Assembly (NCBI GenBank): GCA_964475165.1
Contig: CAYYVN010000009.1
Span: forward strand, 9,348-73,347
DNA: 64,000 nucleotides
Source: an uncultured Verrucomicrobiota bacterium
GTDB taxonomy: Bacteria > Verrucomicrobiota > Kiritimatiellia > JAAZAB01
Direction: 5' to 3'
The notes beneath the pieces are model-generated. The model had not been told where the DNA came from. It did no database searches and was given only the letters and a program-made list of their open reading frames with translations. The translations under genes were made by a program, and so were the position numbers. Positions 16,070 to 57,733 of the stretch are shown piece by piece; positions within the stretch are counted from its first letter, which is position 1, and every line of letters begins with the position of its first letter.

Positions 16070-16203
16070 ATACCCTGCCTGGTGCGTGCTGCGCGCCTCA
16101 CGACTCATCCCCATTACGATTAACGAGAGGCTCTCTGAGCCTGATCTTGTTATCAGGGAAACGAGCCCGGCGTAGCCACGGCTTGGTGGGGTATTTTTTT
16201 TTT
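16070..16203 (+). ncRNA. Candidate structured small RNA in a gene-free interval. Its identity is unknown.
   Basis: A ~130-nt GC-rich block is flanked on the plus strand by A8 (16063-16070) and T10 (16194-16203). The 5' end UACCCUGCC pairs with the 3' end GGUGGGGUA in a 9-bp closing helix immediately followed by the U-run. Internal hairpins sit at 16129-16143 and 16138-16155. A weak promoter TTGCTC-N17-AAAAAT lies just upstream. The flanks are symmetric, so the minus strand cannot be excluded. Confidence 0.3.
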
Positions 16204-16464
16204 GGACAGCCAAGCGCCCTTTTGTCTATCAATTTATAAAAAATGCGAAGAATATGGGCTACTGCTTGGTGGATTGCAGCTGAATCTTGATTGACGAGTG
16301 TTATTGGCCGCTTATTATTTCCGGCCAGCCCTTGATCAAGGATCCAGTTTGTTGGCCAACGGCAGGGCTGAGCGCGCGGCCGCGCGGTGTTGAGACGGGT
16401 GCCGCGCCCTTGCTTGCTGAGAGCAGTCCAGTACAATCTGGCTGGTAAGGAAGTTGAGCAGACG

Positions 16465-18207: not shown

Positions 18208-18269
18208 GCTTGCCTTTGGGTTAGAGATGTGTTTCCATCCGCATGCAGTGGGCCGGAGAAGCTGATTTC

Positions 18270-19124: not shown

Positions 19125-19135
19125 TAGCGGTTACT

Positions 19136-40107: not shown

Positions 40108-40156
40108 CCCTAACATCTGGTGGATCAGTTTGCAAAAATCTATTGCGGGAGGTCGC

Positions 40157-43504: not shown

Positions 43505-43574
43505 ATCCAGGCTGCGCCCGCGCCGCCGCCAATGGATGGGTGGCGCCCGGCGGCGGGCGGTGCTGAACAAAATA

Positions 43575-45404: not shown

Positions 45405-45595
45405 GGCGTCGACTATGCCGCAGAAGAGGAGGGCTTGTCAATCAGAGGAGTGCTGCGCGGAGGGGGACGGCAGCTCAGGCCGTGGCCTCCGCCAGCGGGG
45501 CGCTTGGCAATGCCCCCCTGATCTTTTTAATTTTCGGGTTGCTTTTTTGGCCTTATGAATTTATCTTTCAAAAGAACTGAACTTTTTGATCACTC

Positions 45596-46363
45596 ATGAA
45601 ACCGCGTCAGCGTCAGGAACAAATTTTGCAGCGGCTGCGCGCCTTGCCGCGCGAGTGGCAGGTGGAGGAGTTGGCCCGCGCTCTCAAGGTATCGGCCCTG
45701 ACCATCCGTCGTGATCTGGAGGAGCTGGCGCGTGGCGGTTTAATTTTACGCACGCACGGGGGTTGCCTGGATAGCGGGCGCGGTGCGGCCGCCTCCGACT
45801 ACCAGCGCCGCGTGGCCGTTAATTTTGAGCTCAAGCAGGCCATCGGCGCCGAGGCCGCGCGCCAGGTGCGCGCTCATAACGCGCTCTTGATCAATGACGG
45901 TTCCACCTGTTTTCATTTGGCCTCCTGTTTGGGCCGGGGCGGGGCCTTGACCGTCTACACCAATTCGATCATTATGTTGAGCGAGTTGAGCCGTTTTGCG
46001 AATGTACGTCTCTATGTTTTGGGAGGCGAGTATCAGGCGGCTTCGGCCTGCCTGGGCGGCAGCCTGCTGGAAGAAGCCCTGGAAGATATCGCCGCCGACC
46101 TGGTTTTTCTGGGCACCGATGCGGTGGATGCCCAGGGGCGTTGCCTGGTGTTGGATCAAGATACGGCGCGCGTGGCCCGCGTGATGCTGCGCCATGCGCG
46201 GCGGCGCATTCTGCTGGCGGATCATACCAAGGCGGCGGCGCCGGGGCAGGTGGCTTATGCCAGCTTGCCTGATTTCGATCTTTGGATTACTACGGCTGGC
46301 TTGCCAGGGGGCCTTCGCCGCCGTTACCTAAAACAAACCCTGATCAAGGAGGTGCGCATATGA
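45596..46363 (+). CDS. DeoR/GlpR-family transcriptional regulator.
   Basis: N-terminal HTH (RQEQILQRLRALPREWQVEELARALKVSALTIRRDLEELA) and a C-terminal sugar-phosphate-binding domain. Its stop overlaps the next gene's start (ATGA). Confidence 0.8.
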   Translation: MKPRQRQEQILQRLRALPREWQVEELARALKVSALTIRRDLEELARGGLILRTHGGCLDSGRGAAASDYQRRVAVNFELKQAIGAEAARQVRAHNALLINDGSTCFHLASCLGRGGALTVYTNSIIMLSELSRFANVRLYVLGGEYQAASACLGGSLLEEALEDIAADLVFLGTDAVDAQGRCLVLDQDTARVARVMLRHARRRILLADHTKAAAPGQVAYASLPDFDLWITTAGLPGGLRRRYLKQTLIKEVRI

Positions 46364-47724
46364 ATAGTTCCATCGCCTGGGCTAAAGTTGATTTGAACCG
46401 TTATCCGCAGATCGTCACCTCCAGCGTGCCTGGCCCTCAATCCCAAGCCCAACACAAGCGGGCCGCGGCCATCATGAAGGGCTATTCCGGCCAGGTGAAG
46501 CTCTTCCCGGTGGTCTTTGAGAAGGGGCATGGCTGCACGCTGACCGATGTGGATGGTAATACCTATCTCGATTTTTCATCGGGCATTTATGTCACTACCT
46601 TGGGGCATTGCCATCCCAAGGTGACTGAGGCTGTGCAAAAATATGCCGCTCAGCTGATGAATTGCCACGACTTCACCACGCCCATCAAGCTGCGCTTGCT
46701 GGAGAAACTGCAATCCATTCTGCCTCGGGGTCTGGCGGTGGTGCAGCTCTATGATAGTGGGACTACGGCTGTCGAGGCCGGCTTGCGCGTCTGCCGCGCG
46801 GCCACCCAAAAGCATGAGTTCCTCTCCTGCTACGGCGATTTTCATGGGAAGACCGGTCATGCCGTCAGCCTGGCGCGCATCAACCGCAGCAATGGGCCGA
46901 CGCGCGCGCCCGGCTTTTATATGATGCCGCGCCCCAATCCCTATCGGCCGCTTTTCAAGAAAGCGGATGGCAGTCTGGATACGGATGCTTATCTGGCTTT
47001 CTATGATGAATTCATTCTCGAGGCCACCACGGGGCAGATTGCGGCCATAGTTCTGGAGCCTATCCAGGGTTGGGCGGGATCCATCTTTCCCCCCGATGAT
47101 TTCTTTCCCAAACTGCGCCAATGGTGCGATCGGCATGAGATCCTGCTCTTTGCCGACGAAGTGCTGACCAGTATGGGACGCACGGGCAAGTTTCTGGCCC
47201 TGGAGCATTGGCAGACCGTGCCGGATATCGTCACCCTGGGTAAGGGCTTTGGCAATGGTTTCCCGGTGACGGCCATGGTGGCCCGTGGCGAGTTTGGCGA
47301 GTATTTCGAGAAGATCAGCGCCTCGACCAGCTATGGGGGCAATCCCATGGCCTGCGCGGCGGCCCTGGCCTCGATCGAAGCCATTGAAGAGGAAGGTCTC
47401 CTGGAAAATGCCAAGCGCCTGGAGGATTATTTCATCCCGCGCCTGGCGCAGATGAAGGCGGCCCATCCGATCATCGGCGATGTGCGCTGTAAGGGCTGCC
47501 TGATGGGCGTGGAACTGGTTAAGGATCGCTCCACCAAGGAGCCTTTCCTGGAGGCGGGTAAGCAGGTTTATCAAAGGGCCTTCCGGAAGGGTCTGGCCTG
47601 GATTCCGGCTGGGCATATCCTGCGCATGAGCCCGCCGATCGTCATGGATCTGGATGTGGCCGCTAAGTGCATGGATATCATCGATGAGGCCATCGCCGAA
47701 ACGGAACAAGCGCTGGGCTATTGA
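46360..47724 (+). CDS. Class-III (omega-type) PLP aminotransferase.
   Basis: ...DEVLTSMGRTGKFLALEHW...TLGKGFGNGFPV..., Aminotran_3-like. AAGGAGG RBS. Translationally coupled to deoR. Confidence 0.75.
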   Translation: MNSSIAWAKVDLNRYPQIVTSSVPGPQSQAQHKRAAAIMKGYSGQVKLFPVVFEKGHGCTLTDVDGNTYLDFSSGIYVTTLGHCHPKVTEAVQKYAAQLMNCHDFTTPIKLRLLEKLQSILPRGLAVVQLYDSGTTAVEAGLRVCRAATQKHEFLSCYGDFHGKTGHAVSLARINRSNGPTRAPGFYMMPRPNPYRPLFKKADGSLDTDAYLAFYDEFILEATTGQIAAIVLEPIQGWAGSIFPPDDFFPKLRQWCDRHEILLFADEVLTSMGRTGKFLALEHWQTVPDIVTLGKGFGNGFPVTAMVARGEFGEYFEKISASTSYGGNPMACAAALASIEAIEEEGLLENAKRLEDYFIPRLAQMKAAHPIIGDVRCKGCLMGVELVKDRSTKEPFLEAGKQVYQRAFRKGLAWIPAGHILRMSPPIVMDLDVAAKCMDIIDEAIAETEQALGY

Positions 47725-47738
47725 AGGAAAGGGGCTCC

Positions 47739-48896
47739 ATGAAGACCATCGGATTTGGCATCATTGGCGCCGGGTTGATGGGGCGCGAATTCGCCAGCGC
47801 GGCGGCGCGCTGGGCGCATCTGCCGGAGATGAAAATCCGGCCGCAGATCGTTGCCGTTTGCGATCCCAATCCCGCGGTGCTCGAATGGTATCGCGCCCAT
47901 TTTGCGGCCGGCACCCAATTCACGGATGACTATCATACCCTGCTGGCCAATCCGCAAGTGGAGGCTGTCTATTGCGCCGTGCCCCATCATCTGCATGAGA
48001 GCATCTATACGGCGATCATCCAGGCCGGCAAGCATCTCTTGGGCGAGAAACCCTTTGGCATTGATCTGCCCGCCAACCGGAATATCCTCCAGACGCTCAA
48101 GGCCCATCCCCAGGTCTTCGTGCGTTGCTCCTCGGAATTCCCGTTCTTTCCGGCTGTGCAGCGCATGGGCGCTTTGATCGAAAGTGGCGCTTTCGGCCGC
48201 ATCATCGAGGTCGATGGCTTCTTTTTGCATTCCAGCGATCTCGATCCTCATAAACCCCTCAATTGGAAGCGCACCATCGAGTTCAACGGCGCTTATGGCG
48301 TCCTCGGCGACCTGGGCTTGCATGTCTGCCATGTGCCCTTCCGGGCCGGCTGGATTCCGCGCAATGTGCGCGCCATTCTCTCCGATATCATCAAGGAACG
48401 TCCTGATGGCCGGGGCGGACAGGCGCCCTGTCGGACCTGGGATAACGCCACTTTGCTTTGCGAGGCCCAGGATCCGCTTTCCGGTGATGCCTTCCCCTTG
48501 ACGCTCAAGACGCAGCGCATTGCTCCTGGCGAAAAGAACACCTGGGCCCTCTCCATCCTGGGCACCAAGGCCAGCGCGCGTTTTTCCAGTAAGAATCCCA
48601 AACTCTTACAGCTGTTGGAATATCAGGGCGCTGAGCAGATTTGGCAGCAGCTGGATATGGGGCACGAGACAGCTTTCAAGTCGATCACCGGCGGTATTTT
48701 TGAATTCGGATTTTCGGATGCGCTCTTGCAGATGTGGGCTGCCTTCCTCTACGAGCTGGTGGAGGGATTGCCGCTCAAAAAATTTGCGGCCTGTGTGACA
48801 CCCGCCGAAACCGCCCTCAGCCATCAGCTTTTTACGGCGGCACTCAAGTCGCATGCCAGCCAGGAAGTGATCCGCGTGGGGGAGGGCGCCGTTTAA
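47739..48896 (+). CDS. Gfo/Idh/MocA-family NAD(P) oxidoreductase.
   Basis: MKTIGFGIIGAGLMGREF... Rossmann N-terminus, GEKP motif (HLLGEKPFG). Confidence 0.7.
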   Translation: MKTIGFGIIGAGLMGREFASAAARWAHLPEMKIRPQIVAVCDPNPAVLEWYRAHFAAGTQFTDDYHTLLANPQVEAVYCAVPHHLHESIYTAIIQAGKHLLGEKPFGIDLPANRNILQTLKAHPQVFVRCSSEFPFFPAVQRMGALIESGAFGRIIEVDGFFLHSSDLDPHKPLNWKRTIEFNGAYGVLGDLGLHVCHVPFRAGWIPRNVRAILSDIIKERPDGRGGQAPCRTWDNATLLCEAQDPLSGDAFPLTLKTQRIAPGEKNTWALSILGTKASARFSSKNPKLLQLLEYQGAEQIWQQLDMGHETAFKSITGGIFEFGFSDALLQMWAAFLYELVEGLPLKKFAACVTPAETALSHQLFTAALKSHASQEVIRVGEGAV

Positions 48897-48965
48897 CCCG
48901 CGCGGGGCACCCGCACTTGATCAAGAAAAAGCCAAGCAGTTCATGATGAACACAGAAAGGGACGC

Positions 48966-49775
48966 ATGAAAAATATCAGATTGGAACGCCTCTTCAACCG
49001 CAGTGAACGCACGGTGATCATCGCTATGGATCATGGCGAATTCGATGGGCCGCTCCCCGGAATGATCAATCTGCCGCGCGTAGCCGCTAAAATCGATGCG
49101 AGCGTGGATGGTATTCTGCTCTCGCCGGCCATGTTGCCTCATTGCCGCCAGGCCTTCAATTACAAGGGCGCGCCCCTGGCCGTGGTGCGTCTCAATTGGA
49201 GCACAGTCTATTGTTTTCAGTGGAACTACAAGGAGGCCGTCACCGTGCCGGCTTTCAGTCCGGCCGAAGCCCTGCGCCTGGGCGCGGATGCCGTGCTGAT
49301 TTCGCTGACGCTGCAGACCGGCAGCGAGGCCAACGATGCCCATAACATCGAGGTCTTTCGCGCGCTCTGCGAGCAAGCCAAGCAGCTGGGGCTGCCGGTG
49401 ATCGGCGAGTATTTTCCGGCCGATCCCGATAGTCTTTCCGAGGATGAAATGCACGCCAAGGTCTATGCCTGTGCGCGGATCATCTCCGAGCTGGGCGCCG
49501 ATTGCATCAAAACTTTCTTCACCAATAAATTCAAGGCGGTGGTAGCCAGCTGTCCGGTGCCGGTGCTGGGGCTGGGTGCCGCCAAATGCCCCACTCAATT
49601 GGAGGCTTTGCAGTTGGCCGCCGCCCAGGTGGCCGCCGGCGCCGGCGGCGTGGTCTTCGGCCGTAACGCCATCCAGGTGCCCAATCCGGCGGCCTTTCAG
49701 CGGGCCCTCTGCGATGTGGTCAAGCGCGGGGCGGCCCCGGCCGCGGCCGCCAAGAAGCATGGCTTGCGTGGATAA
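48966..49775 (+). CDS. Class-I aldolase of the DeoC/DhnA (FbaB/LacD-like) family.
   Basis: TIM-barrel aldolase pattern ...VIIAMDHG...GADAVLIS...GADCIKTFFT... The last motif carries the probable Schiff-base Lys. Confidence 0.6.
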   Translation: MKNIRLERLFNRSERTVIIAMDHGEFDGPLPGMINLPRVAAKIDASVDGILLSPAMLPHCRQAFNYKGAPLAVVRLNWSTVYCFQWNYKEAVTVPAFSPAEALRLGADAVLISLTLQTGSEANDAHNIEVFRALCEQAKQLGLPVIGEYFPADPDSLSEDEMHAKVYACARIISELGADCIKTFFTNKFKAVVASCPVPVLGLGAAKCPTQLEALQLAAAQVAAGAGGVVFGRNAIQVPNPAAFQRALCDVVKRGAAPAAAAKKHGLRG

Positions 49776-49915
49776 GCAAAATGCTGACACATGCGGGAGC
49801 TTCTGATAGGCTCAGGCTCTGTTCGCTCGGAGATGGCGGGGCGCTGAGCAGGCAGATAATCTTCAGCTAACAAACAGATCTAAACAGCAAAACTATAAAA
49901 GGGAGACCGTTAGTC

Positions 49916-51184
49916 ATGACTAGCAAGCAACGTCGGCAATCTCGTTCCCGTAAATCTCGTCCCATTCGCCTGGGCGTCGTGGGGCTGGGGCGCGGGCACT
50001 CCTTCACCGGGCCGGGCGCGGAGGCCGCCGGCTTCCAGCTGGTAGCCGTCTGTGACCAGCAGCCGGAGAAGCTCAAGGGTTTCGCCAAGCGTCCCGGGGT
50101 GGCCACCTATACTGATTTCGACCGCTTCCTGAAGCATGATCTGGATGCCGTGGCGCTGGTTAACTATTTCCATCAGCATGCCCCGCTGGCCATTCAGGCC
50201 CTGCGGGCCGGCAAGCATGTCATCAGCGAAACAGCGGCCTGCCATACTCTGGCCGAAGGCGTGGCCCTCATCCGCGCCGTGGAGCAATCCGGCTGCACCT
50301 ATATGTTCGCCGAGAACTATCCCTATAACCGCAGCAATCAGGAGATGCGCCGGCTCTTTCGCAGCGGCGAATTGGGCACCTTTCTCTATGGTGAATGCGA
50401 GTATGTCCATCCCATGAACGCTCATGAAGGCTGCACCTTGCGGCCGGGGCTGGATCACTGGCGCAACTGGGTTCCGGCCACCTACTACTGCACGCATGGC
50501 ATGGGACCGGCCATGTTTATCACCGATACCCGGCCCACGCAGGTGAACGGTTTCGTGGTACCGTTCCCGCCGGATAGTCCCGAATATAAGCTGACCGTTA
50601 AACGTTCCGATTGCGCCAGCATGATCGCCGTGCGCATGGATAATCGCGCGGTGGTCAAGTTGTTGCAGGGTAATTTGCGCCGACACAGCAGCCAAGTGCG
50701 CATCTACGCGGCGCGCGGCTACATGGAGGGCAATGGCCGCAGCGTGACTGTGATTCGCCAGCAATGGCATGAACGCCGGCGTTATCCGGAGGAAGTGACT
50801 TATCTGCCCGATTTCCCTGAAATGCACGAGCTGGCCTTGCGCAGTGGTCATGGCGGCGGCGATTTCTTTATGCTCTATCATTTCGCCGATGCCATTCGCA
50901 GAAAGAAACAGCCTTATTTGGATGTCTATCGCGGGGTAGCCATGTCGGCCGTGGGCATTCAGGCCTATCGTTCGGCCCTGGCCGATGGCGCGCCGATGCC
51001 CGTGCCCGATTTCCGTAAGGCCGCTGTGCGCCGTCAATACGAAGCTGACGATTGGTCGCCCGATCCGGCGCGGCGGCGGCCGGGGCAGCCCTGGCCCAGC
51101 ATCGATGGTGATATCAAACCGTCGGCGACGGGGTTGAAGCATGCGCGCCAGATCTGGCGCCAGATGGGCTATAAGGGCCGCTAG
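49916..51184 (+). CDS. Gfo/Idh/MocA-family oxidoreductase, paralog group A.
   Basis: IRLGVVGLGRGHSF..., ...AGKHVISETAACHTLAEG...ENYPYNRSNQ...YYCTHGMGPAMFITD... Paralogous to the N-terminal half of 55724-57733. Confidence 0.7.
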   Translation: MTSKQRRQSRSRKSRPIRLGVVGLGRGHSFTGPGAEAAGFQLVAVCDQQPEKLKGFAKRPGVATYTDFDRFLKHDLDAVALVNYFHQHAPLAIQALRAGKHVISETAACHTLAEGVALIRAVEQSGCTYMFAENYPYNRSNQEMRRLFRSGELGTFLYGECEYVHPMNAHEGCTLRPGLDHWRNWVPATYYCTHGMGPAMFITDTRPTQVNGFVVPFPPDSPEYKLTVKRSDCASMIAVRMDNRAVVKLLQGNLRRHSSQVRIYAARGYMEGNGRSVTVIRQQWHERRRYPEEVTYLPDFPEMHELALRSGHGGGDFFMLYHFADAIRRKKQPYLDVYRGVAMSAVGIQAYRSALADGAPMPVPDFRKAAVRRQYEADDWSPDPARRRPGQPWPSIDGDIKPSATGLKHARQIWRQMGYKGR

Positions 51185-51245
51185 TATTTCCGGATGGCCC
51201 TGCGCCGCTTGAGGCCGGCGCGTGGCGGCCGGGAGGGGGGGGAGC

Positions 51246-52838
51246 ATGAAGCCTTTATTCGCGGTGCAAGCGGTTGATCAAACCTTTTATGAGCAGCGCT
51301 TGCGCGACTGGTTGCCGGATAAAATCATCGATATCCACACCCATCTCTGGCGCAATCCGGCGGGGGCGCGCGCCGCCGCCCAACCTTCCCGCAGTGTCAC
51401 TTGGCCGGCGCGCGTAGCGGCTCAAAATCCGCTGGAGGATCTGGTGGCAACCTATGAGTTGCTTTTCCCCGGTAAACAGGTGACGCCCCTGATGTTCGCT
51501 TCCGCCCAACATCAGAACTTGCGCCGCGCCAATGCTTATGTGGCCCGCTCGGCCCGCCGCCGGCATTTTCCGGCTTTGATCTATTCGCATCCGCGTTGGA
51601 GCGCCAATCAACTGCTGGAAGAAATCGAACAAGGCGGTTTTCTGGGCGCCAAGAGCTATCTCTCGCTGGCTGAGGATTACTTGCCGGCGGGGGAAATCCG
51701 TATCTACGATTTCTTCCCGCCACACCAGTTGGCGGCGCTCAACCGGCGTGGCTTGATCCTCATGCTGCATATCCCGCGGGCCGCCCGCCTGCGCGATCCG
51801 GTTAACCTGGCCCAACTGCTGGAGATCGAGGAGCGTTATCCGCGCCTGCAGGTGATTGTGGCCCATGTGGGCCGGGCCTATTGCCGGCCTGATATCGGCG
51901 CGGCCTTTCAGAGGCTGGCCGGCACCAAACGCTTGCTCTTCGATATCTCGGCCAATACCAATGCGGAGGTCTTTAGAGAGTTGTTGCGGGCGGTCGGCCC
52001 GGGGCGCGTTCTTTTTGGCAGCGATCTGCCCATCACGCGCATGCGTATGCGGCGTATTTGCGAGGGCGGCCGTTATGTTAACCTGGTGCCTCGCGGTCTC
52101 TATGGCAATCTGGCAGGCGATAAAAATATGCGGGCCCTCTCCGGTGCCGCCGCTCAAGGCCTGACTTTCTTTCTATATGAAGAGCTGGATGCTTTTCGCC
52201 GCGCGGCCAAGGCGGAGCGGCTCACTCAGGGTGATATCCAGGCTGTCTTTCACGATAACGCGGCCGCCCTGCTGGCCAGCGCTGCCAAACAACCCCCGCA
52301 GCAACTGCGCATGGTCTATCCGGCGGCGCGCCGGATCAAGCCGCGCGATCTCAAATTGCCGCCCGGCTACCAGCTGCGCACCTACCGGGCGGATGATGCA
52401 GAGGCTTATATCCGCCTCATGCGCCGCGCAGGGTTCAGGGCCTGGAACAAGGACACTCTCCAGGAGCTCTTGCGGCGCATCTTGCCCGGAGGAATCTTTT
52501 TTATCGTGCACCAGCCCAGCGGCGCCTTGGTGGCTACGGCCAGCGCTCTGCATCATCCGCAGGAGCAGCATCCCAGCGGGGGCGAATTGGGTTGGGTGGC
52601 CTGCGACCCGAAGTGGCGCGGGCGGGGCCTGGGCAGGATCGTCTGCGCGGCGGCGCTCAAGCGTTTTCAAGATGCCGGCTATCGGGAGCTATATCTCTTG
52701 ACCGACGACATCCGCCTGGCGGCCATTCATATCTATTTGGAGCAGGGCTGGAAGCCGCTGCTCTGTGCGCCGGATATGGCGGCGCGCTGGCAAGCCGTTT
52801 TGCAGCAGCTCAATTTAAAAAAGGAGGTTCAGCTATGA
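51246..52838 (+). CDS. Fusion protein: metal-dependent amidohydrolase (Amidohydro_2-like TIM barrel) + C-terminal GNAT N-acetyltransferase.
   Basis: N-terminal IIDIHTHLW (HxH metal site). The C-terminal ~170 aa has the GNAT acetyl-CoA motif (...GWVACDPKWRGRGLGRIVCAAALKRFQDAGYRELYLLTDD...). Confidence 0.6.
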   Translation: MKPLFAVQAVDQTFYEQRLRDWLPDKIIDIHTHLWRNPAGARAAAQPSRSVTWPARVAAQNPLEDLVATYELLFPGKQVTPLMFASAQHQNLRRANAYVARSARRRHFPALIYSHPRWSANQLLEEIEQGGFLGAKSYLSLAEDYLPAGEIRIYDFFPPHQLAALNRRGLILMLHIPRAARLRDPVNLAQLLEIEERYPRLQVIVAHVGRAYCRPDIGAAFQRLAGTKRLLFDISANTNAEVFRELLRAVGPGRVLFGSDLPITRMRMRRICEGGRYVNLVPRGLYGNLAGDKNMRALSGAAAQGLTFFLYEELDAFRRAAKAERLTQGDIQAVFHDNAAALLASAAKQPPQQLRMVYPAARRIKPRDLKLPPGYQLRTYRADDAEAYIRLMRRAGFRAWNKDTLQELLRRILPGGIFFIVHQPSGALVATASALHHPQEQHPSGGELGWVACDPKWRGRGLGRIVCAAALKRFQDAGYRELYLLTDDIRLAAIHIYLEQGWKPLLCAPDMAARWQAVLQQLNLKKEVQL

Positions 52839-54229
52839 CGGAGATTCGCGTGGGCTTGCTCGCTTTTTATCTGGAATTATATGATCGCGTTTCCCCCAAA
52901 CGCCGCCAGCGTATCAATCAGTTTTACGATCAAATCGCGGCCGCCTTGGAGCGCCGCGGCCTGCACATTTTGCGCGCACCGGTTTGTCGTTTGGAGGGGG
53001 AGTTCCGCGCCGCGGTGCGGGGTTTCGAAAAAGAGGGCGCCGAAGCCCTGATCACCCTGCATTTGGCCTATTCGCCCTCTTTGGAATCAGCCGGGGTTTT
53101 GGCCAAAACCGCGCTGCCGATCATTGTTTTGGATACCACTCCGACCTTCGATTACGGCCCCCACCAGGATCCCGATGAACTGATGTTTAATCATGGTATT
53201 CATGGTGTGCAGGATATGTGCAACCTCTTGATCAGGCATGGTAAGCCCTTTCAGATCGAGGCTGGGCATTGGCAGGAATCGGATGTCTTGGCGCGTGTGA
53301 CCGCTGCGGCTTGCGCGGCGCGCATGGCCAGCGCCATGCGCCGCGCGCGCGTCGGACGGATCGGGCCGCCCTTCCGTGGCATGGGCGATTTTGCCGTGCC
53401 CAGCACCGTGCTCAAAAAAACGATGGGCGTTGAAACCGTTCTCTGCCCAGCGGGCACGCTGCGCCGTTTGAGCCGCGCCTTGCGTCCGGCCGAAGAAATG
53501 GCCGAAGCCGCCGCCTGCCGCCTGATCTTCGATGCGCGTCAGATCAGTTCCGCCAGTCTGCGGCGTTCGGTGCGCGCCAGCTTGGCCGTGCGGCACTGGA
53601 TGGAGCAGGAGCATTTAACGGCTTTCACGATGAACTTTCTTTCCATAACCCGCACCCTGGGGCTGCCCACCGTGCCTTTCCTGGAAGCCTGTTTGGCTAT
53701 GGCGCGCGGTAACGGTTACGCCGGTGAGAGCGATGTGCTCACCGCCGCTCTGGTGAGCGCTCTCTTAGCCGCTTATCCCGAGACCACTTTCTCGGAAATG
53801 TTCTGTCCGGATTGGAAGGGCAATCGCATTTTTATCAGTCATATGAGCGAGGTTAATCATCGCTTGCTGGCTAAGCGCCCCTGCCTGCTGGAAAAACCTT
53901 TTCCCTATACCAATGTGCCGGCCCCGCTCAGCGTGGCCGGCTGCCTGCGGGGCGGCCAGGCTGTCTGGGTCAATCTGGCGCCCCTGCCGCAGCAGCGCTT
54001 TCGACTGATCGTGGCGCCGGTGACCATGAAAACCATCCGCGGTCCGGACCGCATGGGCAGCAGCGTGCGCGGTTGGATGGAGCCCTCGGGTAGCGTAGCC
54101 GATTTTCTGGCGGCCTATAGCCGCCTGGGAGGAACGCATCATGCGGCCTTGGTCTATGGCGATGCCGCGCGCAGCATCCTCAGTTTTGGTGAGCTGATGG
54201 GCTGGGAAACAGCTCTCATCGAGCGTTGA
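52835..54229 (+). CDS. L-arabinose-isomerase-family aldose-ketose isomerase.
   Basis: Aligns by eye with AraA (LHLAYSPS ~ WLHTFSPA; AGHWQE ~ TGHWQD; catalytic-Glu region YAGESDVLTA ~ FAGEGDWKTA). AAGGAGG RBS. ATGA overlap with the upstream gene. Confidence 0.6.
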   Translation: MTEIRVGLLAFYLELYDRVSPKRRQRINQFYDQIAAALERRGLHILRAPVCRLEGEFRAAVRGFEKEGAEALITLHLAYSPSLESAGVLAKTALPIIVLDTTPTFDYGPHQDPDELMFNHGIHGVQDMCNLLIRHGKPFQIEAGHWQESDVLARVTAAACAARMASAMRRARVGRIGPPFRGMGDFAVPSTVLKKTMGVETVLCPAGTLRRLSRALRPAEEMAEAAACRLIFDARQISSASLRRSVRASLAVRHWMEQEHLTAFTMNFLSITRTLGLPTVPFLEACLAMARGNGYAGESDVLTAALVSALLAAYPETTFSEMFCPDWKGNRIFISHMSEVNHRLLAKRPCLLEKPFPYTNVPAPLSVAGCLRGGQAVWVNLAPLPQQRFRLIVAPVTMKTIRGPDRMGSSVRGWMEPSGSVADFLAAYSRLGGTHHAALVYGDAARSILSFGELMGWETALIER

Positions 54230-54231
54230 GC

Positions 54232-55689
54232 ATGAAAGATGCCGCATATCTTGGTTTGGATCTGGGCGGGACCGGCGCCAAGGCGGGACTCTTTAACGCC
54301 GAGGGCTCTCTCTTAGGCTTGGGGCAGGCGCGTTTCGAGCCGCAGATCTCACCGGCCGGGCATGCTGAAATAGCTATCGATGAAATTTATCTGGCGGCAC
54401 GCCAGGCGGTCCGCCAGGCCTTGGCCGGCAGCGGGGCGCGGGTTTTGGCGCTGGCGATATCTTCCCAGGGACAAACCTTCGTGGCCCTGGATGAAGATGA
54501 TCGACCCTTGCATCCGGCGATTATGTGGTATGATAGCCGTGCGGCTGAGCAGGCCGCCCAGTTACAGGCGGCGGCCGCGCATTTTTCGGGAGCTGTGCCT
54601 GAGCCCAGCGCTATTGCTACCGCATCAAAAATCCTTTGGCTCCGGGCGCAGCGGCCGGAGCTCATGCGGCGCGCCAGGCGCTATCTGCTTTTGCCGGATT
54701 ATTTCGCCTATCGACTCAGCGGTGAAGCGGTCACCGATCCGAATACGGCCGCGACCACCGCTCTCTATACCGCGGATGGTTTTGGCTATCATGCGGGTTT
54801 GCTGGAGGCCGTTGGCCTAGAGCTTGCACAATTGGCGCGGGTTTTACCCTGTGGCAGTCCGGTGGCGCCCGTGCGCCCTGAGCTAGCCGCCGAGTGGGGC
54901 TTGGCTCCGGAAACCCTCTTGGTCACCGGCACCAACGATCAGTATGCCGGCGCGCTGGGCGCCGGCAATTGCCGCCCCGGCATCCTCAGCGAAACTTCCG
55001 GTACCTGCCTGGCGATGGTGACCTTGACCGAACAAAGACTCGAGCCAGTGCCCTGCGGCTTGTTCACGGGGCGTTTCCCGATTGCGGCCTATTATTATCT
55101 GTTGGCCTATTCCAAGACCGCCGGGGTGGTGCTCGATTGGTTTCGCAAAAATTTTGCGCCGACGGCCAGTTTGGAAGATTTGACTCAAGCCGCCGCCGGC
55201 GTGCCGATCGGTGCGCATGGCGTGAGCATGTTACCGACTTTCGATGGCGCCATCTCCCCTCGGCCCAATCAGGCTTTGCGGGGAGTTTTTGCTAATCTTT
55301 CCCTGCAACATACCAGCGCCGATTTGTTCCGGGCTATCCTGGAGGCACTCTCTTTTGCCCTGCATGAAAATATCCTGCATCTCAGCGCCAATGGCTTTGC
55401 GCCGGAGGTGATTCGTTCCATCGGCGGCGGCGCGCGCAATGATTTTTGGTTACAGATGAAGGCCGATCTCACCGGCCTGACGGTCGAAAAGCCCGCCGTC
55501 ACCGAGGCCGCTGTCTTGGGTGCGGCTATGCTGGCGGCCAGTGGCCAAGGGGCCTATCGTTCGCTGGCCGAAGCCAGTGCCGCTTTATACCGTCCCAGTC
55601 GCCTTTTCAATCCGGATCCTGAGCGGCACGGGGCCTATCAGGAAGCCTATCAGCGTTATCAGAAACTGCGCTGTCGCTGGCCGGATTGA
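54232..55689 (+). CDS. FGGY-family carbohydrate kinase (xylulokinase-like).
   Basis: MKDAAYLGLDLGGTGAKAGLF...; second actin-fold motif ...IRSIGGGARNDFWLQMKADL... Its start is 3 nt after the upstream stop. Confidence 0.75.
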   Translation: MKDAAYLGLDLGGTGAKAGLFNAEGSLLGLGQARFEPQISPAGHAEIAIDEIYLAARQAVRQALAGSGARVLALAISSQGQTFVALDEDDRPLHPAIMWYDSRAAEQAAQLQAAAAHFSGAVPEPSAIATASKILWLRAQRPELMRRARRYLLLPDYFAYRLSGEAVTDPNTAATTALYTADGFGYHAGLLEAVGLELAQLARVLPCGSPVAPVRPELAAEWGLAPETLLVTGTNDQYAGALGAGNCRPGILSETSGTCLAMVTLTEQRLEPVPCGLFTGRFPIAAYYYLLAYSKTAGVVLDWFRKNFAPTASLEDLTQAAAGVPIGAHGVSMLPTFDGAISPRPNQALRGVFANLSLQHTSADLFRAILEALSFALHENILHLSANGFAPEVIRSIGGGARNDFWLQMKADLTGLTVEKPAVTEAAVLGAAMLAASGQGAYRSLAEASAALYRPSRLFNPDPERHGAYQEAYQRYQKLRCRWPD

Positions 55690-55723
55690 GTGAGTTCCCT
55701 GAGCAGCCATATAGGAGCCATGC

Positions 55724-57733
55724 ATGAGCAGAAAACAGATCAAGGTGTTCGATACTGATCAGCGCATTCGCCTGGGTATCTGGGGGCTGGGGCGCGGGAT
55801 GAGCTTTTACCATACTTGCCGGCTGCTGAATATCGATGTGGTCGCCGGCTGCGATTATAACGCCCATATGCGCGAAAAATTCCTGGCGGCCAATCCGGAC
55901 GCCTTGGCCACCGCCGATGCCCAAGAGTTCCTGGATCATGATTTCGATGCCGTGCTCTTGGCCACCTATTGTCCCAATCATGCCGAGGACGCTATCCGCT
56001 GTCTGCAGGCTGGCAAACATGTGTTGGCGGAGGTCACCTCTTTTTTCACCCTGGCCCAAGGGGTGCGCCTGGTGGAGGCGGTGGAAAAAAGCGGACGCAT
56101 CTATAACCTGGCCGAGAATTATCCCTTCAGCGCGGCCAATATGTATCTGGCCCACCACTGGCAGGCGGGTCTCTTCGGCGAGTTGATGTATGCCGAATAT
56201 GAATACATGCATGAATGCCGGGCGCTGTCTTATACCTATATTGATGGTATGCCGGTGCAGCCGGGGCATACGGTGCATAACTGGCGCAGCTGGATGGATT
56301 TTCATTACTATTGCACCCATTCCCTGGGACCGGTCATGGTCATTACCGGCCGGCGCCCCACCAGAGTGGTCGCGCTCCCCGCCAGACAGCGTCTGGCCGG
56401 CTATCTGATCGAGGGCTCTGCCGGTACCGGGATGGGTGGCATCTCGCCCTCGCTGATCAGCATGGATAACGGCGGGGTGGTCCGCAATCTGATGGGTGCC
56501 AGCACCAATGATTCGCATATTCAAAGAATCTGGGGCACCCTCGGCTCAGCCGAGCTCAATACGGGTAAGGGCTTACAGTTGCGTTTGGGCGCGGCCGGCA
56601 CTTCGCCCAAGTTAGCCGTGACGCCCCGCGCGCATCAGCTGGGTGTTCTGGCCAGCAAGACCGGCCATGGGGGTGGCGATTTCTGGGTGCTCTATTATTT
56701 TGCCCGTCAGATTTTTACCGGAGAGAAGGCGCCCTTCGATATCTATCAAGCCTGCGATGTCACCATCCCCGGTATCCAGGCCTATCGCTCGTCGCAGGAG
56801 GAAGGGCAGCCTCAGGTTGTGCCTGACTTCCGTCAGCCCAAGGAACGCGATGCTTTCCGCAATGATCATTGGCAGCCGCAAGCCTATGATTATCAAAAGG
56901 GCGTCTTTGGCGGCATCAGCACTGGTCTGGCCAGCCAGTTTTCGAGGGTCATGGCTGCTCTGACCAGATACGCGCCCCTTTATCGGGCCTATGTCGATTG
57001 GAAAAAAATCCGCGCTGATCTGGTTACACCCGATGATTTCTTGCGACTGGCGCTGGCTCTCCTGCCGCACCTCAAGGAGCTTCAGGAAACCTACGCTCAG
57101 GCCGTCCGGATCAGCCAGGCTTATCCTGGCAGCGATGGTGCCCGCCTGCTCAAGGAAATGCTGGAGCTGGGTCATGCCGAAACAGTTATGGCGCCGGGCT
57201 TCGCAGCGCGTTTTCGGCGTGAATGGAGCTTGACTGTGCGTAAATACATGCGTCTGCCGCCGGCAGAGGCCGCCAGGCTGTTGGGGCCAGGGGTGCATCT
57301 GCTGCGCACCTATACCAGCATCAGTTCCGCGCGCATCAGTGCTCTGCTGCCTGAGTCTGGCTCCATCCGCAAGGTCGGCCTGCCGTCTAAAGGCCTGGTT
57401 TGGCGCTCACTGGCCGTGCAAGTCCTGGCTGACCGTTGCTTCTTGGATATGCGCCCCGTGCATGAGTCGCATAAGGATGGCCTGATTTATGGGGAGTGCA
57501 TCATCCAGCGGCCGCGCCGCGGCCGCGCCGCTTTGCAGTATGGGGCCGATGGTCCGGTTAAACTATGGTTGAATGGCAAGGAGGTTGCCTGCCGACCAGA
57601 GGCCACCAATCCCTTGAATCCACCCCGCTTCAAGGCGCTGCTGCAGTGGCGGCGCGGTCCCAACAAATTGCTCTTTGCCATGCGCACCAATGGGGGTAAG
57701 GCCTGGGGGCTCAGCCTGCTCCTGCCGGCTTGA
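55724..57733 (+). CDS. Gfo/Idh/MocA-family oxidoreductase with a ~300-aa C-terminal extension, possibly a beta-sandwich or sugar-binding domain.
   Basis: The N-terminal 350 aa are paralogous to 49916-51184 (IRLGIWGLGRGMSF; AGKHVLAEV; ENYPFSAAN; YYCTHSLGPVMVITG). The C-terminus ...GPVKLWLNGKEV...LLFAMRTNGGKAWGLSLLLPA looks like a jelly-roll domain. Confidence 0.55.
   Translation: MSRKQIKVFDTDQRIRLGIWGLGRGMSFYHTCRLLNIDVVAGCDYNAHMREKFLAANPDALATADAQEFLDHDFDAVLLATYCPNHAEDAIRCLQAGKHVLAEVTSFFTLAQGVRLVEAVEKSGRIYNLAENYPFSAANMYLAHHWQAGLFGELMYAEYEYMHECRALSYTYIDGMPVQPGHTVHNWRSWMDFHYYCTHSLGPVMVITGRRPTRVVALPARQRLAGYLIEGSAGTGMGGISPSLISMDNGGVVRNLMGASTNDSHIQRIWGTLGSAELNTGKGLQLRLGAAGTSPKLAVTPRAHQLGVLASKTGHGGGDFWVLYYFARQIFTGEKAPFDIYQACDVTIPGIQAYRSSQEEGQPQVVPDFRQPKERDAFRNDHWQPQAYDYQKGVFGGISTGLASQFSRVMAALTRYAPLYRAYVDWKKIRADLVTPDDFLRLALALLPHLKELQETYAQAVRISQAYPGSDGARLLKEMLELGHAETVMAPGFAARFRREWSLTVRKYMRLPPAEAARLLGPGVHLLRTYTSISSARISALLPESGSIRKVGLPSKGLVWRSLAVQVLADRCFLDMRPVHESHKDGLIYGECIIQRPRRGRAALQYGADGPVKLWLNGKEVACRPEATNPLNPPRFKALLQWRRGPNKLLFAMRTNGGKAWGLSLLLPA

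Follow-up and report, generated by a model that had tools for sequence, protein, structure and literature searches.

An operon of nine genes in the window, a 64,000-nucleotide stretch of one contig from an uncultured Verrucomicrobiota bacterium, is a genuine sugar-breakdown operon whose transaminase probably deaminates an amino sugar. Its gene set is found again in more than 10 bacterial phyla, and the route that it would encode is apparently undescribed: our literature search turned up no account of it, and none of the operon's genes reaches an NCBIfam equivalog cutoff, in line with the initial annotation, which knew of no characterized pathway with precisely this set of genes. That the operon serves, under DeoR control, to catabolize an amino-substituted sugar that may be N-acetylated and may arrive as a glycoside is a reading to which we assign an even probability.

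Organization of the operon

The nine closely packed open reading frames (positions 45596 to 57733) all lie on the plus strand (Table 1). The co-directional arrangement and the domains claimed at the outset agree with the ORF coordinates and Pfam, and profile searches against Pfam and NCBIfam recovered every family assignment. The coupling read from the sequence is also present: 4-nt ATGA overlaps join the DeoR and aminotransferase genes (at 46360) and the amidohydrolase::GNAT and isomerase genes (at 52835), and 2 nt separate the isomerase stop (54229) from the kinase ATG (54232); the remaining gaps are 14, 69, 140, 61, and 34 nt. Most starts are preceded by GGAGG-like ribosome-binding sites, and an independent assembly of the identical sequence gives the same gene calls. 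The first Gfo gene more likely begins at ATG 47739 than at TTG 47721, and ATG 51246 is the likely start of the amidohydrolase. Long antisense ORFs within the operon (e.g., 49910 to 51247 on the minus strand) are probably artifacts of high G+C content. The operon itself holds no transporter gene, which we count against the reading given above.

Table 1. Features of the operon and its upstream region
Feature	Position	Strand	Length (aa)	Basis
Type I mannose-6-phosphate isomerase (ManA)	43536..44579	+		PMI_typeI_cat; just upstream of operon
Repeat CTGAWCTTTTTRAT, two copies	45518..45590	+		Exact matches, 59 nt apart
DeoR-family repressor	45596..46363	+	255	HTH_DeoR + DeoRC (Pfam)
Class III (omega) aminotransferase AT3a	46360..47724	+	454	Aminotran_3, E 6e-99
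GFO385, Gfo/Idh/MocA dehydrogenase	47739..48896	+		GFO_IDH_MocA; canonical GEKPF motif
DhnA-type class I aldolase	48966..49775	+	269	PF01791, DeoC/LacD family
GFO422, GH109-like Gfo/Idh/MocA protein	49916..51184	+		Pfam; PF21252 precomputed
Amidohydrolase::GNAT fusion	51246..52838	+	530	Amidohydro_2 + Acetyltransf_1 (Pfam)
ISO, AraA-family aldose-ketose isomerase	52835..54229	+	464	AraA_central + Arabinose_Iso_C
FGGY-family sugar kinase	54232..55689	+	485	FGGY_N + FGGY_C
GFO669, three-part protein	55724..57733	+	669	AlphaFold model, Foldseek

The DeoR protein falls below every NCBIfam equivalog cutoff (GlpR, SrlR, and AgaR score 115 to 156 bits), and its orthologues, at 50 to 68% identity, sit before the aminotransferase in many loci. 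Both copies of CTGAWCTTTTTRAT lie in the 191-nt region 5' of its gene and are the only exact matches in the window; allowing up to 2 mismatches yields five matches against 0.9 expected, and the pair may be an operator or promoter element.

Properties of the encoded proteins

The proposed isomerase-kinase-aldolase logic is plausible, in that ISO retains the four metal and catalytic ligands of AraA (E298, E321, H336, and H435/436) and the aldolase is of the DhnA-type class I. The aldolase sequence carries the motifs AMDHG, DCIKT (with the presumed Schiff-base lysine), and FGRN, and among solved structures the enzyme most resembles MJ0400 (E 2e-32), LsrF, and a Thermoproteus FBP aldolase. ISO is not an L-arabinose isomerase orthologue (77 bits against an NCBIfam cutoff of 622), and the best NCBIfam match of the kinase is XylB (294 bits; cutoff, 380), followed by LsrK (184 bits).

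AT3a has an intact PLP lysine (in TLGKGF) and an invariant DFHGK[ST] motif, in which lysine replaces the usual arginine of FHGRT. The solved structures most similar to it are those of archaeal GABA/ornithine-type aminotransferases and racemases, and because its closest solved relatives include amino acid racemases and phospho-lyases, AT3a is possibly no transaminase at all.

The fusion protein joins an Amidohydro_2-type TIM-barrel metallohydrolase (residues ~1 to 350; D29, H31, H33, K136, H175, H207, and D260 invariant) to a GNAT acetyltransferase (~375 to 530) with an intact motif A (RGRGLG), and it forms at least 55 clusters at 90% identity in several phyla. Its initial description as deacetylase-like needs correction: the fold is closest to sugar lactonases and decarboxylases and not to NagA-type deacetylases, although the ligand pattern still permits amide hydrolysis.

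All three proteins annotated as sugar oxidoreductases contain the GFO_IDH_MocA domain, but two are GH109-like and may be glycosidases. GFO385, which we propose to be a keto-sugar reductase, is nearest in structure to levoglucosan 3-dehydrogenase (E 2e-23) and scyllo-inositol/L-glucose dehydrogenase (E 2e-20), and in many loci its gene lies directly downstream of an aminotransferase gene (AT3a or AT3b; see below). GFO422 has an SGHGGGDF loop, lacks the EKP lysine, and shows no evident signal peptide; it is indeed a paralogue of the N-terminal domain of GFO669 (36% identity over 379 aa, E 1e-67). The latter protein comprises a GH109-like Gfo domain (residues 1 to 390; TGHGGGDFW loop, likewise lacking the EKP lysine), a helical bundle (401 to 519), and the predicted extra beta-sandwich, which the AlphaFold model (pLDDT 87) places at residues 532 to 666. 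Its best Foldseek matches are the GH109 alpha-N-acetylgalactosaminidases 6t2b and 2ixa (E 6e-19), and the PVC phyla hold at least 120 clusters of its family, all under generic source names only ("hypothetical protein," "predicted dehydrogenase," "Gfo/Idh/MocA family"). With their GH109-like fold and GHGGG loop, GFO422 and GFO669 may be NAD-dependent glycosidases, for which a gateway role in isomerase-kinase-aldolase clusters has published precedent (PMC10755693).

Conservation and modular structure

ISO has orthologues in more than 10 phyla, including those of cultured Paenibacillus and Cohnella; sequences at 45 to 70% identity come from Verrucomicrobiota, Kiritimatiellia, Lentisphaerota, Armatimonadota, Acidobacteriota, Chloroflexota, Spirochaetota, Chlamydiota, Planctomycetota, and Bacillota. 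We fetched loci with up to 10 kb on each side of the isomerase and, in the 42 whose flanks both reach at least 6 kb, counted genes within ~9 kb of it: the amidohydrolase and an FGGY kinase are each present in 27 of 42 loci, a class III aminotransferase in 21, the aldolase in 19, and GFO385 in 14, and GNAT is lacking in most. The gene set is not exclusive to the window but is conserved in related PVC genomes, with parts of it in more than 10 phyla. One locus (L009) repeats the whole arrangement, and two others (L010 and L017) have most of the genes without GNAT.

The operon combines two modules that are also found apart, as follows.

(i) Module A consists of DeoR, the aminotransferase, GFO385, and the class I aldolase. 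When it stands alone, it carries its own alternative isomerase and kinase.

(ii) Module B consists of a GH109-like protein, amidohydrolase::GNAT, the isomerase, and the FGGY kinase, followed by the GH109-like GFO669.

Genes at five positions of this set are replaced across loci: the aminotransferase is either AT3a or a divergent, non-orthologous 521-aa enzyme (AT3b), the kinase comes from several FGGY lineages, the isomerase is ISO itself, a distant paralogue of the AraA-like type, or a cupin similar to D-lyxose isomerase, the aldolase is DhnA-type or TAL/FSA, and the reductase is GFO385 or a Zn-ADH. Such non-orthologous displacement marks the functions that are required. Reduction and cleavage are not universal steps, since Paenibacillaceae operons have AT3b but neither GFO385 nor the aldolase. 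Several loci, mostly in Clostridia, hold amidohydrolase, isomerase, kinase, and aldolase with no aminotransferase within 10 kb, so that the core can handle a compound devoid of an amino group, and the amidohydrolase, which co-occurs with the isomerase and not with the aminotransferase, cannot simply be a deacetylase feeding the latter.

The suggestion, first made from the window, that the operon acts on the amino group of a sugar-like molecule gains independent comparative support from the alternation of two aminotransferases beside the same isomerase and Gfo genes and from their company. AT3b is accompanied by a true alanine dehydrogenase (527 bits; cutoff, 392), in Armatimonadota a glutamate dehydrogenase gene stands between those of AT3a and GFO385, an Actinomycetota locus (L042) has one as well, and at some loci the AT3a operon includes an APC amino acid permease. 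We count the two dehydrogenases in favor of catabolism, as recycling the amino acceptor, although they could equally supply amino donors in the biosynthetic direction. N-acyl handling also recurs, which we count toward an amino-sugar substrate: GNAT is fused to the amidohydrolase or to an AraA-like isomerase (P0433) or is free-standing beside them, and related loci contain other amide hydrolases (Amidohydro_3, creatininase, CN_hydrolase, and ceramidase-like). The transporters (APC permease, SSF symporters, and sugar ABC systems), DeoR or LacI regulators, and glycosidase neighbors (GH38, GH4, and GH28) of related loci likewise favor a catabolic context.

Proposed pathway and alternatives

From family membership and gene context, we consider it an even call that the amine is lost through transamination and ketoreduction and that the resulting neutral aldose is isomerized, phosphorylated, and cleaved to DHAP and an aldehyde. 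Cytoplasmic GFO422 and GFO669 would free the sugar from a glycoside by NAD-dependent oxidation-elimination or else serve as extra dehydrogenases. The aminotransferase would then use 2-oxoglutarate or pyruvate as amino acceptor and turn the substrate into a keto- or aldehydo-sugar whose carbonyl GFO385 would reduce to give the neutral aldose; the AraA-like isomerase would convert this to a ketose, the FGGY kinase would phosphorylate it, and the aldolase would release DHAP and an aldehyde. Amidohydrolase::GNAT, as a functional partner of the isomerase, might hydrolyze either a lactone of this sugar or one of its N-acyl/amide derivatives, with the GNAT half acetylating an amine. We know of no characterized catabolic pathway in which a free amino sugar is transaminated directly.

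An oxidative route, which we regard as improbable, would account better for the amidohydrolase, whose fold lies near lactonases and decarboxylases, whose invariant residues include many arginines, and whose gene often has a GH109-like Gfo gene immediately 5' of it. A Gfo enzyme would oxidize C1 of an amino-aldose (L-glucose 1-dehydrogenase resembles GFO385), the amidohydrolase would act as lactonase, and the GABA-aminotransferase-like enzyme would turn the resulting omega- or alpha-amino acid into a uronate or keto-aldonate for AraA-like isomerization, phosphorylation beside the new ketone, and cleavage to DHAP and an acid-aldehyde such as tartronate semialdehyde, analogous to IolB/IolC/IolJ. 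The GABA/ornithine-type relatives of AT3a accept carboxylate-bearing amines, but AT3a has lysine for the canonical arginine that binds the distal carboxylate, the D-lyxose-isomerase-like cupin and mutarotase-like substitutes indicate a neutral aldose, and omega-amino aldoses are rare in nature. To our knowledge, uronates are not substrates of any AraA-family enzyme, nor are 5-keto-aldonates substrates of any FGGY kinase.

Quite improbable, too, is the degradation of a neutral sugar or cyclitol, for instance by an iol-like inositol route built from nonhomologous parts, with the aminotransferase acting only on the small aldehyde from the aldolase for disposal or redox balancing (e.g., malonate semialdehyde to beta-alanine, or an amino-aldehyde). 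The core loci devoid of an aminotransferase fit such a route, as do the similarity of several Gfo dehydrogenases to inositol dehydrogenase, the DeoR regulators (IolR is of the DeoR type), the SSF and CUT2 transporters, and the alanine and glutamate dehydrogenases as possible sources of amino donors. Yet IolD-, IolE-, and IolA-like families are outside the top 25 families in isomerase operons, only 2 of 123 proteins have the IolE-type fold (AP_endonuc_2), GNAT and amide hydrolases turn up repeatedly, and the aminotransferase heads its operon directly with GFO385 and the APC permease, as befits an entry rather than a terminal step.

We think it very doubtful that modules A and B are independent and merely juxtaposed in this lineage, serving different substrates: each occurs alone in many loci, the largest gap of the operon (140 nt) falls exactly between them, and the amidohydrolase follows the isomerase rather than the aminotransferase, but the modules are found together, in differing gene orders, in at least eight phyla, the window's single isomerase, kinase, and aldolase are split across the halves so that neither is a complete pathway, and stand-alone module A supplies its own isomerase and kinase. 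Salvage or biosynthesis is the most improbable alternative; transamination of a Gfo-made keto-sugar and N-acetylation by GNAT, yielding an N-acetyl amino sugar or iminosugar-type product, would follow the classical biosynthetic order of dehydrogenase, aminotransferase, and acetyltransferase (as in kanosamine and UDP-GlcNAc3NAc logic), with donors regenerable by glutamate and alanine dehydrogenases and with class III aminotransferases known from azasugar biosynthesis, but the uptake transporters, DeoR/LacI repressors, free-sugar kinase, glycosidase genes, and cleaving aldolase point to catabolism, most loci lack GNAT, and nucleotidyltransferase, glycosyltransferase, and export genes are absent.

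Candidate substrate

For catabolic deamination of an amino sugar, the most specific candidate substrate, itself unlikely, is a 2-amino-2-deoxyhexose (GlcN, GalN, or ManN), which would pass through a 2-keto-aldose and a manno- or talo-configured aldose to fructose or tagatose. Weak hints of a manno- or lyxo-configured sugar come from the D-lyxose-isomerase-like cupin, the GH38 enzyme, a DUF4432 protein (which we take to have a mutarotase-like fold), and the neighboring ManA gene. The last may be associated with the operon, from which a minus-strand RluA gene divides it; homologues at 46 to 51% identity are present in loci L017 and L030.

Organization and conservation of the operon

The cluster is real, conserved, and uncharacterized. 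Our furthest-reaching reading, rated somewhat short of an even chance, is a phosphorylation-late, transaminase-dependent catabolism of amino sugars that would be widespread in the PVC supergroup, Armatimonadota, Acidobacteriota, Chloroflexota, Spirochaetota, and Bacillota. It would employ four uncharacterized enzyme families: an FHGK omega-transaminase for free amino sugars, an AraA-like isomerase subfamily, a binuclear-type Amidohydro_2 enzyme (often GNAT-fused), and cytoplasmic GH109-like gateway glycosidases with a C-terminal beta-sandwich.

The operon consists of nine ORFs, all on the plus strand, and the stop/start coupling described in the initial annotation is present: ATGA overlaps join the DeoR repressor gene to the aminotransferase gene (46360) and the amidohydrolase::GNAT gene to the isomerase gene (52835), and a 2-nt gap separates isomerase from kinase (54229/54232). 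The other junctions are gaps of 14 to 140 nt, most with a GGAGG-like ribosome-binding site. Housekeeping genes (ManA, RluA, FolC, and AccD) flank the operon, and the same stretch is present, identical, in two public assemblies. An Rfam scan of the window detected no riboswitch and only four tRNAs, outside the operon, and the matches from promoter and terminator scans were not above chance. Upstream of the DeoR gene, CTGAWCTTTTTRAT occurs twice, spaced 59 nt, with no further exact match anywhere in the 64-kb window; the two copies are possible DeoR operator half-sites. Long minus-strand ORFs (289 to 445 aa) that oppose operon genes are probably artefacts of high G+C content, although one exceeds the true aldolase gene in length and misleads a simple longest-ORF caller.

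Coordinates of operon genes and other features
Feature	Sequence	Positions	Strand
Operon	window	45596-57733	+
DeoR repressor	window	45596-46363	+
AT3a, class-III aminotransferase	window	46360-47724	+
GFO385, Gfo/Idh/MocA dehydrogenase	window	47739-48896	+
DhnA-type aldolase	window	48966-49775	+
GFO422, GH109-like	window	49916-51184	+
Amidohydrolase::GNAT fusion	window	51246-52838	+
ISO, AraA-family isomerase	window	52835-54229	+
FGGY kinase	window	54232-55689	+
GFO669, three-part GH109-like	window	55724-57733	+
CTGAWCTTTTTRAT, first copy	window	45518-45531	
CTGAWCTTTTTRAT, second copy	window	45577-45590	
Antisense ORF	window	46576-47709	-
Antisense ORF	window	48921-49790	-
Antisense ORF	window	49910-51247	-
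Antisense ORF	window	51255-52157	-
Antisense ORF	window	55607-56524	-
ManA, type-I mannose-6-phosphate isomerase	window	43536-44579	+
1124-aa repeat protein	window	40130-43504	+
834-aa secreted-looking protein	window	32332-34836	-
Negative AT-skew region	window	16000-20000	
Three ORFs in that region	window	16387-20470	+
Site noted at a Bacillota version of the operon	locus L018	14880-17855	
Site noted at a Bacillota version of the operon	locus L022	3567-5705	

At E ≤ 1e-5 the isomerase, ISO, has more than 3,000 relatives, among which other AraA-family proteins may be included; the best 120 of these are 55 to 70% identical to it and are named at most "hypothetical protein" or, automatically, "L-arabinose isomerase," none bearing a specific functional name. 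Its subfamily amounts to 198 clusters at 50% identity (E ≤ 1e-30). A scan of one genome per species yielded 80 loci from Verrucomicrobiota, Kiritimatiellia, Lentisphaerota, Armatimonadota, Acidobacteriota, Chloroflexota, Spirochaetota, Chlamydiota, Planctomycetota, and Bacillota; carriers in culture are, among others, Paenibacillus daejeonensis (DSM 15491), Paenibacillus sp. 598K, and Cohnella phaseoli (CECT 7287), whose version of the cluster is a compact operon of AT3b-DeoR-AlaDH-FGGY-amidohydrolase-isomerase (AlaDH, alanine dehydrogenase). A plasmid collection searched with the isomerase gave a single distant, uninformative match.

ORFs were called and clustered in these loci, and genes up to about 9 kb from ISO were counted in the 42 loci whose two flanks each span 6 kb or more. 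The amidohydrolase and an FGGY kinase each occur in 27 of the 42, a class-III aminotransferase in half (21), the aldolase in 19, and GFO385 in 14, with the amidohydrolase mostly directly upstream of ISO and frequently overlapping it. The whole window arrangement is found again in the closest genome locus (L009, from a Verrucomicrobiota MAG), where the synteny matches and includes FolC, AccD, and ComF, so that the window probably derives from a bacterium of the PVC group; two further loci (L010 and L017) hold most of the operon genes without the GNAT.

Family assignments

Every family named in the initial annotation was borne out by Pfam and NCBIfam searches: DeoR, Aminotran_3, GFO_IDH_MocA (three proteins), a DeoC/LacD-family (DhnA-type) aldolase, Amidohydro_2-GNAT, an AraA-family isomerase, and an FGGY kinase. 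None of the nine genes reaches an NCBIfam equivalog cut-off, so no specific function can be transferred to any of them.

(i) The isomerase has the AraA central and C-terminal domains (PF24856, E 4e-7; PF11762, E 1e-10), and its only matches among PDB sequences are L-arabinose isomerases. Aligned to 4r1o, its residues E298, E321, H336, and H435/436, which are invariant across 21 orthologues, fall at the positions of the AraA metal and catalytic ligands (which we take to be Glu306, Glu331, His348, and His447 in Geobacillus AraA numbering). It is not an AraA orthologue (77 bits against an equivalog cut-off of 622). ISO is predicted to work like an AraA-type isomerase yet to form a separate subfamily.

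(ii) The kinase carries both FGGY domains (N-terminal, E 1e-41; C-terminal, E 4e-29) and fits none of the known xylulo-, ribulo-, fuculo-, rhamnulo-, glycerol, or AI-2 kinase specificities, its best score being 294 bits for XylB against a cut-off of 380.

(iii) The aldolase has the DeoC/LacD fold (PF01791, E 9e-19; MJ0400, E 2e-32) with the motifs DCIKT, AMDHG, and FGRN read from its sequence, the putative Schiff-base lysine being assigned by motif and not by superposition. It scores below the cut-offs of the characterized subfamilies ADH synthase (161 against 241 bits), LsrF (113 against 297), archaeal FBP aldolase (106 against 430), and BagB (84 against 500).

(iv) The aminotransferase, AT3a, matches Aminotran_3 (E 6e-99) and conserves TLGKGF (PLP lysine) and ADEV (the Asp contacting the pyridine nitrogen). 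In GabT/ArgD-type enzymes, the Arg of FHGRT binds the substrate carboxylate; this Arg is missing from AT3a orthologues, in which DFHGK[ST] is invariant; the family has its own substrate-recognition signature.

(v) Among the Gfo/Idh/MocA proteins, GFO385 has the canonical EKP motif and resembles levoglucosan 3-dehydrogenase and inositol/L-glucose dehydrogenase. The other two are the paralogues that had been claimed, GFO422 being 36% identical to the N-terminal domain of GFO669; both are missing the EKP lysine and have an invariant GHGGG loop (SGHGGGDF and TGHGGGDFW), a candidate counterpart of the GH109 loop. The predicted structure of GFO669 contains the extra beta-sandwich domain that had been proposed and, in addition, a helical bundle. 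In a Foldseek search, this model most resembles GH109 alpha-N-acetylgalactosaminidases (E 6e-19, 20 to 22% identity), and 1,5-anhydrofructose reductase is among its structural neighbors. The GH109 C-terminal domain (PF21252) scores 22 bits in GFO669 against a cut-off of 27, and there are precomputed matches for both GH109-like proteins. The GFO669 family is large, belongs to the PVC bacteria, and bears only generic source names ("hypothetical protein," "predicted dehydrogenase," "Gfo/Idh/MocA family").

The GH109 catalytic acid/base sits in a conserved GGHGG loop, according to the title of Teze 2020 (as listed in PMC11535203) and the residue roles given in PMC10755693. Because none of 31 proteins annotated as GH109/177/179 in an Armatimonadota isolate was active when assayed (PMC11535203), a GH109 annotation by itself is weak. 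There is a precedent in SqgA, an NAD-dependent glycosidase that is the gateway enzyme of an isomerase-kinase-aldolase cluster (PMC10755693), and a putative role of GFO422 and GFO669 as gateway glycosidases is therefore reasonable.

The amidohydrolase::GNAT fusion and possible N-acyl handling

The initial annotation described a deacetylase-like amidohydrolase fused to a GNAT acetyltransferase. The fusion is real (PF04909 plus Acetyltransf_1), but a NagA-type deacetylase is at odds with what was observed: neither Amidohydro_1 membership nor close structural similarity to NagA was found, and the TIM barrel of the AlphaFold model (pLDDT 90) is nearest to COG3618 enzymes, placing the protein in the Amidohydro_2/COG3618 lactonase clan. 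PDB sequence and profile searches gave remote matches only (E at least 4e-6). The family conserves HxH, a lysine ending strand 4, two histidines, and an aspartate, a predicted ligand set (HxH/K/H/H/D) that resembles the one of binuclear amidohydrolases acting on amides, esters, or lactones. The COG3618 enzymes include PDB 4mup, which we take to be the galactaro-lactone isomerase Atu3138. Another is L-fucono-1,5-lactonase, PDB 4dlf (Hobbs 2013, as cited in PMC13406643). The window family is only 14 to 19% identical to COG3618 lactone enzymes and differs from them in having the full ligand set typical of binuclear amidohydrolases, in its fusion to GNAT, and in the AraA-like isomerase that always adjoins it. 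We consider an oxidative route through an amino-aldonate unlikely.

The GNAT part (Acetyltransf_1, E 1.5e-11) has acetyl-CoA motif A as RGRGLG, read from sequence, and no PDB match to this domain is informative on acceptor class. Its link to the system is robust: at least 55 clusters, spread over several phyla, contain the amidohydrolase::GNAT fusion; a second, independent fusion (P0433, 678 aa) joins an N-terminal GNAT to an AraA-like isomerase that is 34% identical to the window isomerase; and in other loci unfused GNAT genes sit between the amidohydrolase and ISO genes or next to them. Further amide hydrolases (Amidohydro_3, creatininase, CN_hydrolase, and ceramidase-like) are found near AT3a or ISO. 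The recurring GNAT links and these hydrolases thus make N-acyl handling, as originally suggested, plausible. An order of deacetylase then transaminase was rejected, as the amidohydrolase tracks the isomerase, and there are loci with both of these and no aminotransferase within 10 kb. In five loci (L010, L013, L019, L059, and L089), proteins of 440 to 500 aa encoded near the isomerase or aminotransferase weakly resemble the N-terminal domain of neutral ceramidase.

Aminotransferases and proposed amine removal

The class-III aminotransferases of ISO loci are of two non-orthologous kinds, AT3a and a divergent 521-aa lineage (AT3b) from Bacillota, Spirochaetota, and Victivallaceae. GFO385 is often the direct neighbor of either, and each kind is paired with its own amino-acceptor recycling enzyme: AT3b loci encode a bona fide alanine dehydrogenase (TIGR00518; 527 bits, cut-off 392), and Armatimonadota AT3a loci have a glutamate dehydrogenase between AT3a and GFO385, an enzyme also present in an Actinomycetota locus (L042). 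A second scan, anchored on AT3a, gave 80 metagenome loci at 69 to 86% identity, in which DeoR and FGGY genes are frequently divergent from AT3a and accompanied by genes for GFO385, an APC amino-acid permease, and an AraA-like isomerase only distantly related to ISO. That an operon of sugar type includes an amino-acid/amine-superfamily transporter is in keeping with a cationic substrate, either an amino sugar or an aminopolyol.

Taurine catabolism likewise couples a class-III aminotransferase to alanine dehydrogenase: taurine:pyruvate aminotransferase (Tpa) and alanine dehydrogenase (Ald) strip the amine and release ammonium. The AT3b loci share this pair, but set it in a sugar isomerase/kinase operon and use a divergent aminotransferase. 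The linked alanine and glutamate dehydrogenases disfavor a phospho-lyase function of the AT3 proteins. The interpretation in the initial annotation is partly supported. A route for a neutral sugar or cyclitol with a terminal transaminase seems improbable.

Two modules and five proposed steps

Two modules are joined in the window operon. Module A (DeoR-AT3a-GFO385-aldolase) stands alone in many loci, then with an alternative isomerase and kinase. Module B (amidohydrolase-ISO-FGGY, to which the aldolase and GH109-like Gfo proteins may or may not be added) is likewise found by itself, especially in Clostridia, in loci that lack an aminotransferase within 10 kb. The seam in the window is the 140-nt gap between the aldolase and GFO422. 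Such separate occurrences are what two unrelated modules would look like, an explanation that we regard as quite improbable: the window holds a single isomerase, a single kinase, and a single aldolase, divided across the seam, and the modules are found together in several phyla in varying gene order, which argues for one pathway with two entry branches.

Several steps are filled by different enzymes in different loci: isomerization by ISO, by a distantly related AraA-like paralogue, or by a cupin of 160 aa that resembles D-lyxose isomerase; phosphorylation by at least four FGGY lineages; cleavage by the DhnA-type aldolase or a TAL/FSA-family enzyme; and the dehydrogenase step beside AT3a by GFO385 or a Zn-ADH. 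Some loci add a DUF4432 protein (presumably with a mutarotase-like fold), an aldo-keto reductase, or glycosidases of GH38, GH4, and GH28. This non-orthologous displacement points to a constant logic of five steps, which, judged from families and context, would be amine removal, carbonyl reduction, aldose-ketose isomerization, phosphorylation, and class-I aldol cleavage. We give this general mechanism about an even chance of being correct.

Comparison with known systems

Literature searches on the gene combination, glucosone/glucosamine transamination, alanine-dehydrogenase-linked sugar operons, and related enzyme families returned no description of the cluster. The initial annotation named no characterized pathway with this exact gene set; the operon shares the logic of fucose, rhamnose, D-arabinose, and sulfo-EMP catabolism and is a member of none. 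It is best classed as known in being a catabolic sugar operon built from known superfamilies, and as new in its front end and several uncharacterized subfamilies.

(i) Amino-sugar catabolism as known so far runs through phosphorylation, deacetylation by NagA/AgaA, and deamination by NagB/AgaS, and every textbook route that we know of takes the amine off a sugar 6-phosphate by a NagB/AgaS-type deaminase. A 2025 review of amino-sugar catabolism nowhere mentions a transaminase (PMC12118421). As proposed for the window operon, the GalNAc/GalN and GlcNAc pathways lead from an N-acetyl amino sugar through a ketose phosphate to trioses, with a DeoR-family repressor (AgaR), an amidohydrolase-superfamily enzyme adjoining an isomerase-type enzyme, and a final aldolase (AgaY/LacD) cleavage to DHAP. 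Unlike them, the operon is without NagA/AgaA (Amidohydro_1), NagB/AgaS, and PTS genes, and it would use transamination in place of 6-phosphate deamination and phosphorylate late.

(ii) The FucI-FucK-FucA, RhaA-RhaB-RhaD, and D-arabinose triads share with the operon an AraA/FucI-superfamily isomerase, an FGGY kinase, and the route, proposed for the operon, from an aldose through ketose and ketose phosphate to DHAP and an aldehyde. The operon differs in its class-I DhnA-type aldolase (class II in the triads), its separate isomerase subfamily, and its extra aminotransferase, Gfo, amidohydrolase, and GNAT genes.

(iii) The sulfo-EMP cluster with SqgA (GH188) serves a C6-modified sugar and encodes, in a setting like the one proposed for the operon, an NAD-dependent Rossmann glycosidase alongside isomerase, kinase, and class-I aldolase; SqgA superposes on GH109 and is assigned to the SDR superfamily (PMC10755693). 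A sulfoquinovose pathway was rejected, as the operon has no sulfonate-handling genes and the similarity of its isomerase to SftI is negligible (E 0.009). The Gfo proteins also differ, being GH109-like and not GH188.

(iv) An iol-type inositol pathway was also rejected: the window has no analogues of IolD, IolE, or IolA. Among 123 further operon proteins, IolD- and IolA-type families are outside the 25 most frequent families, and the IolE-type fold (AP_endonuc_2) occurs in only two.

(v) Biosynthesis of kanosamine (NtdC/NtdA) and UDP-GlcNAc3N (GnnA/GnnB, WbpB/WbpE) couples a Gfo/Idh/MocA dehydrogenase to an aminotransferase, as is proposed for the operon, interconverting sugar hydroxyl, ketone, and amine; the aminotransferases of these routes are of DegT type, act on phosphorylated or nucleotide sugars, and work in the aminating direction, whereas the operon has a class-III enzyme in a catabolic context, and a biosynthetic function is very unlikely.

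Candidate substrates

Upstream of the operon, past a minus-strand RluA gene, lies ManA, whose homologues are also near the isomerase in L017 and L030; this neighbor may hint at a mannose-type intermediate. The closest AT3a locus has a GH38 (alpha-mannosidase family) gene. Together, the cupin, GH38, DUF4432, and ManA are weak hints of a neutral aldose of manno-, lyxo-, or talo-configuration. The Gfo-family enzyme 1,5-anhydrofructose reductase turns 2-keto-aldoses into manno-configured aldoses, and with the preceding hints this suggests a 2-keto-aldose route, in which GlcN, ManN, or GalN would give a 2-keto-aldose, then mannose or talose, and then fructose or tagatose. We regard this specific route as doubtful; a C3-, C4-, or C6-amino sugar, as first suggested, is possible.

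Compared with PDB entries in search of a liganded relative, the solute-binding proteins of isomerase operons resemble only generic mono- and oligosaccharide binders. Two Bacillota operons (L018 and L022) adjoin a CUT1 sugar ABC transporter, a GH9 protein with fn3, and a GH78-like protein, which suggests an oligosaccharide as substrate source. URO-D/MtaA-like proteins, with weak methyltransferase similarity, occur in 9 of 75 isomerase loci (related loci L003, L004, L006, L007, L010, L012, L017, L045, L052, and L059), once alongside an MTTB-family gene (L006), and not in the window; they may point to demethylation of a methylated substrate derivative.

Implications

In soils, sediments, and guts, amino sugars make up a major reservoir of organic carbon and nitrogen. 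The cluster is widespread and may bear on this large nutrient pool; it is assembled from familiar chemistry. If our reading is true, transaminase action on the free sugar would add another general strategy to 6-phosphate deamination, and amino sugars that cannot be phosphorylated at C6 could also be handled. Confirmation would give functions to large "hypothetical protein" or generically named families in poorly cultured phyla, would partly account for the unexplained expansion of Gfo/GH109-like proteins in PVC bacteria and Armatimonadota, and would supply new enzymes for amino- and rare-sugar biocatalysis (a sugar omega-transaminase and isomerases). The compact cluster of cultured Paenibacillus and Cohnella makes the hypothesis directly testable.

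Other features of the window

The 1124-aa protein encoded upstream of ManA is built mainly from coiled-coil-like repeats rich in Gln, Ala, Glu, and Leu, has a TPR-like C-terminus, and causes the strong positive AT skew at 40 to 42 kb. The 834-aa protein has, as read from its sequence, apparent right-handed beta-helix-like repeats and a PKD-like segment. Over the three plus-strand ORFs near the 16- to 20-kb region, AT skew is strongly negative (-0.26 to -0.32).
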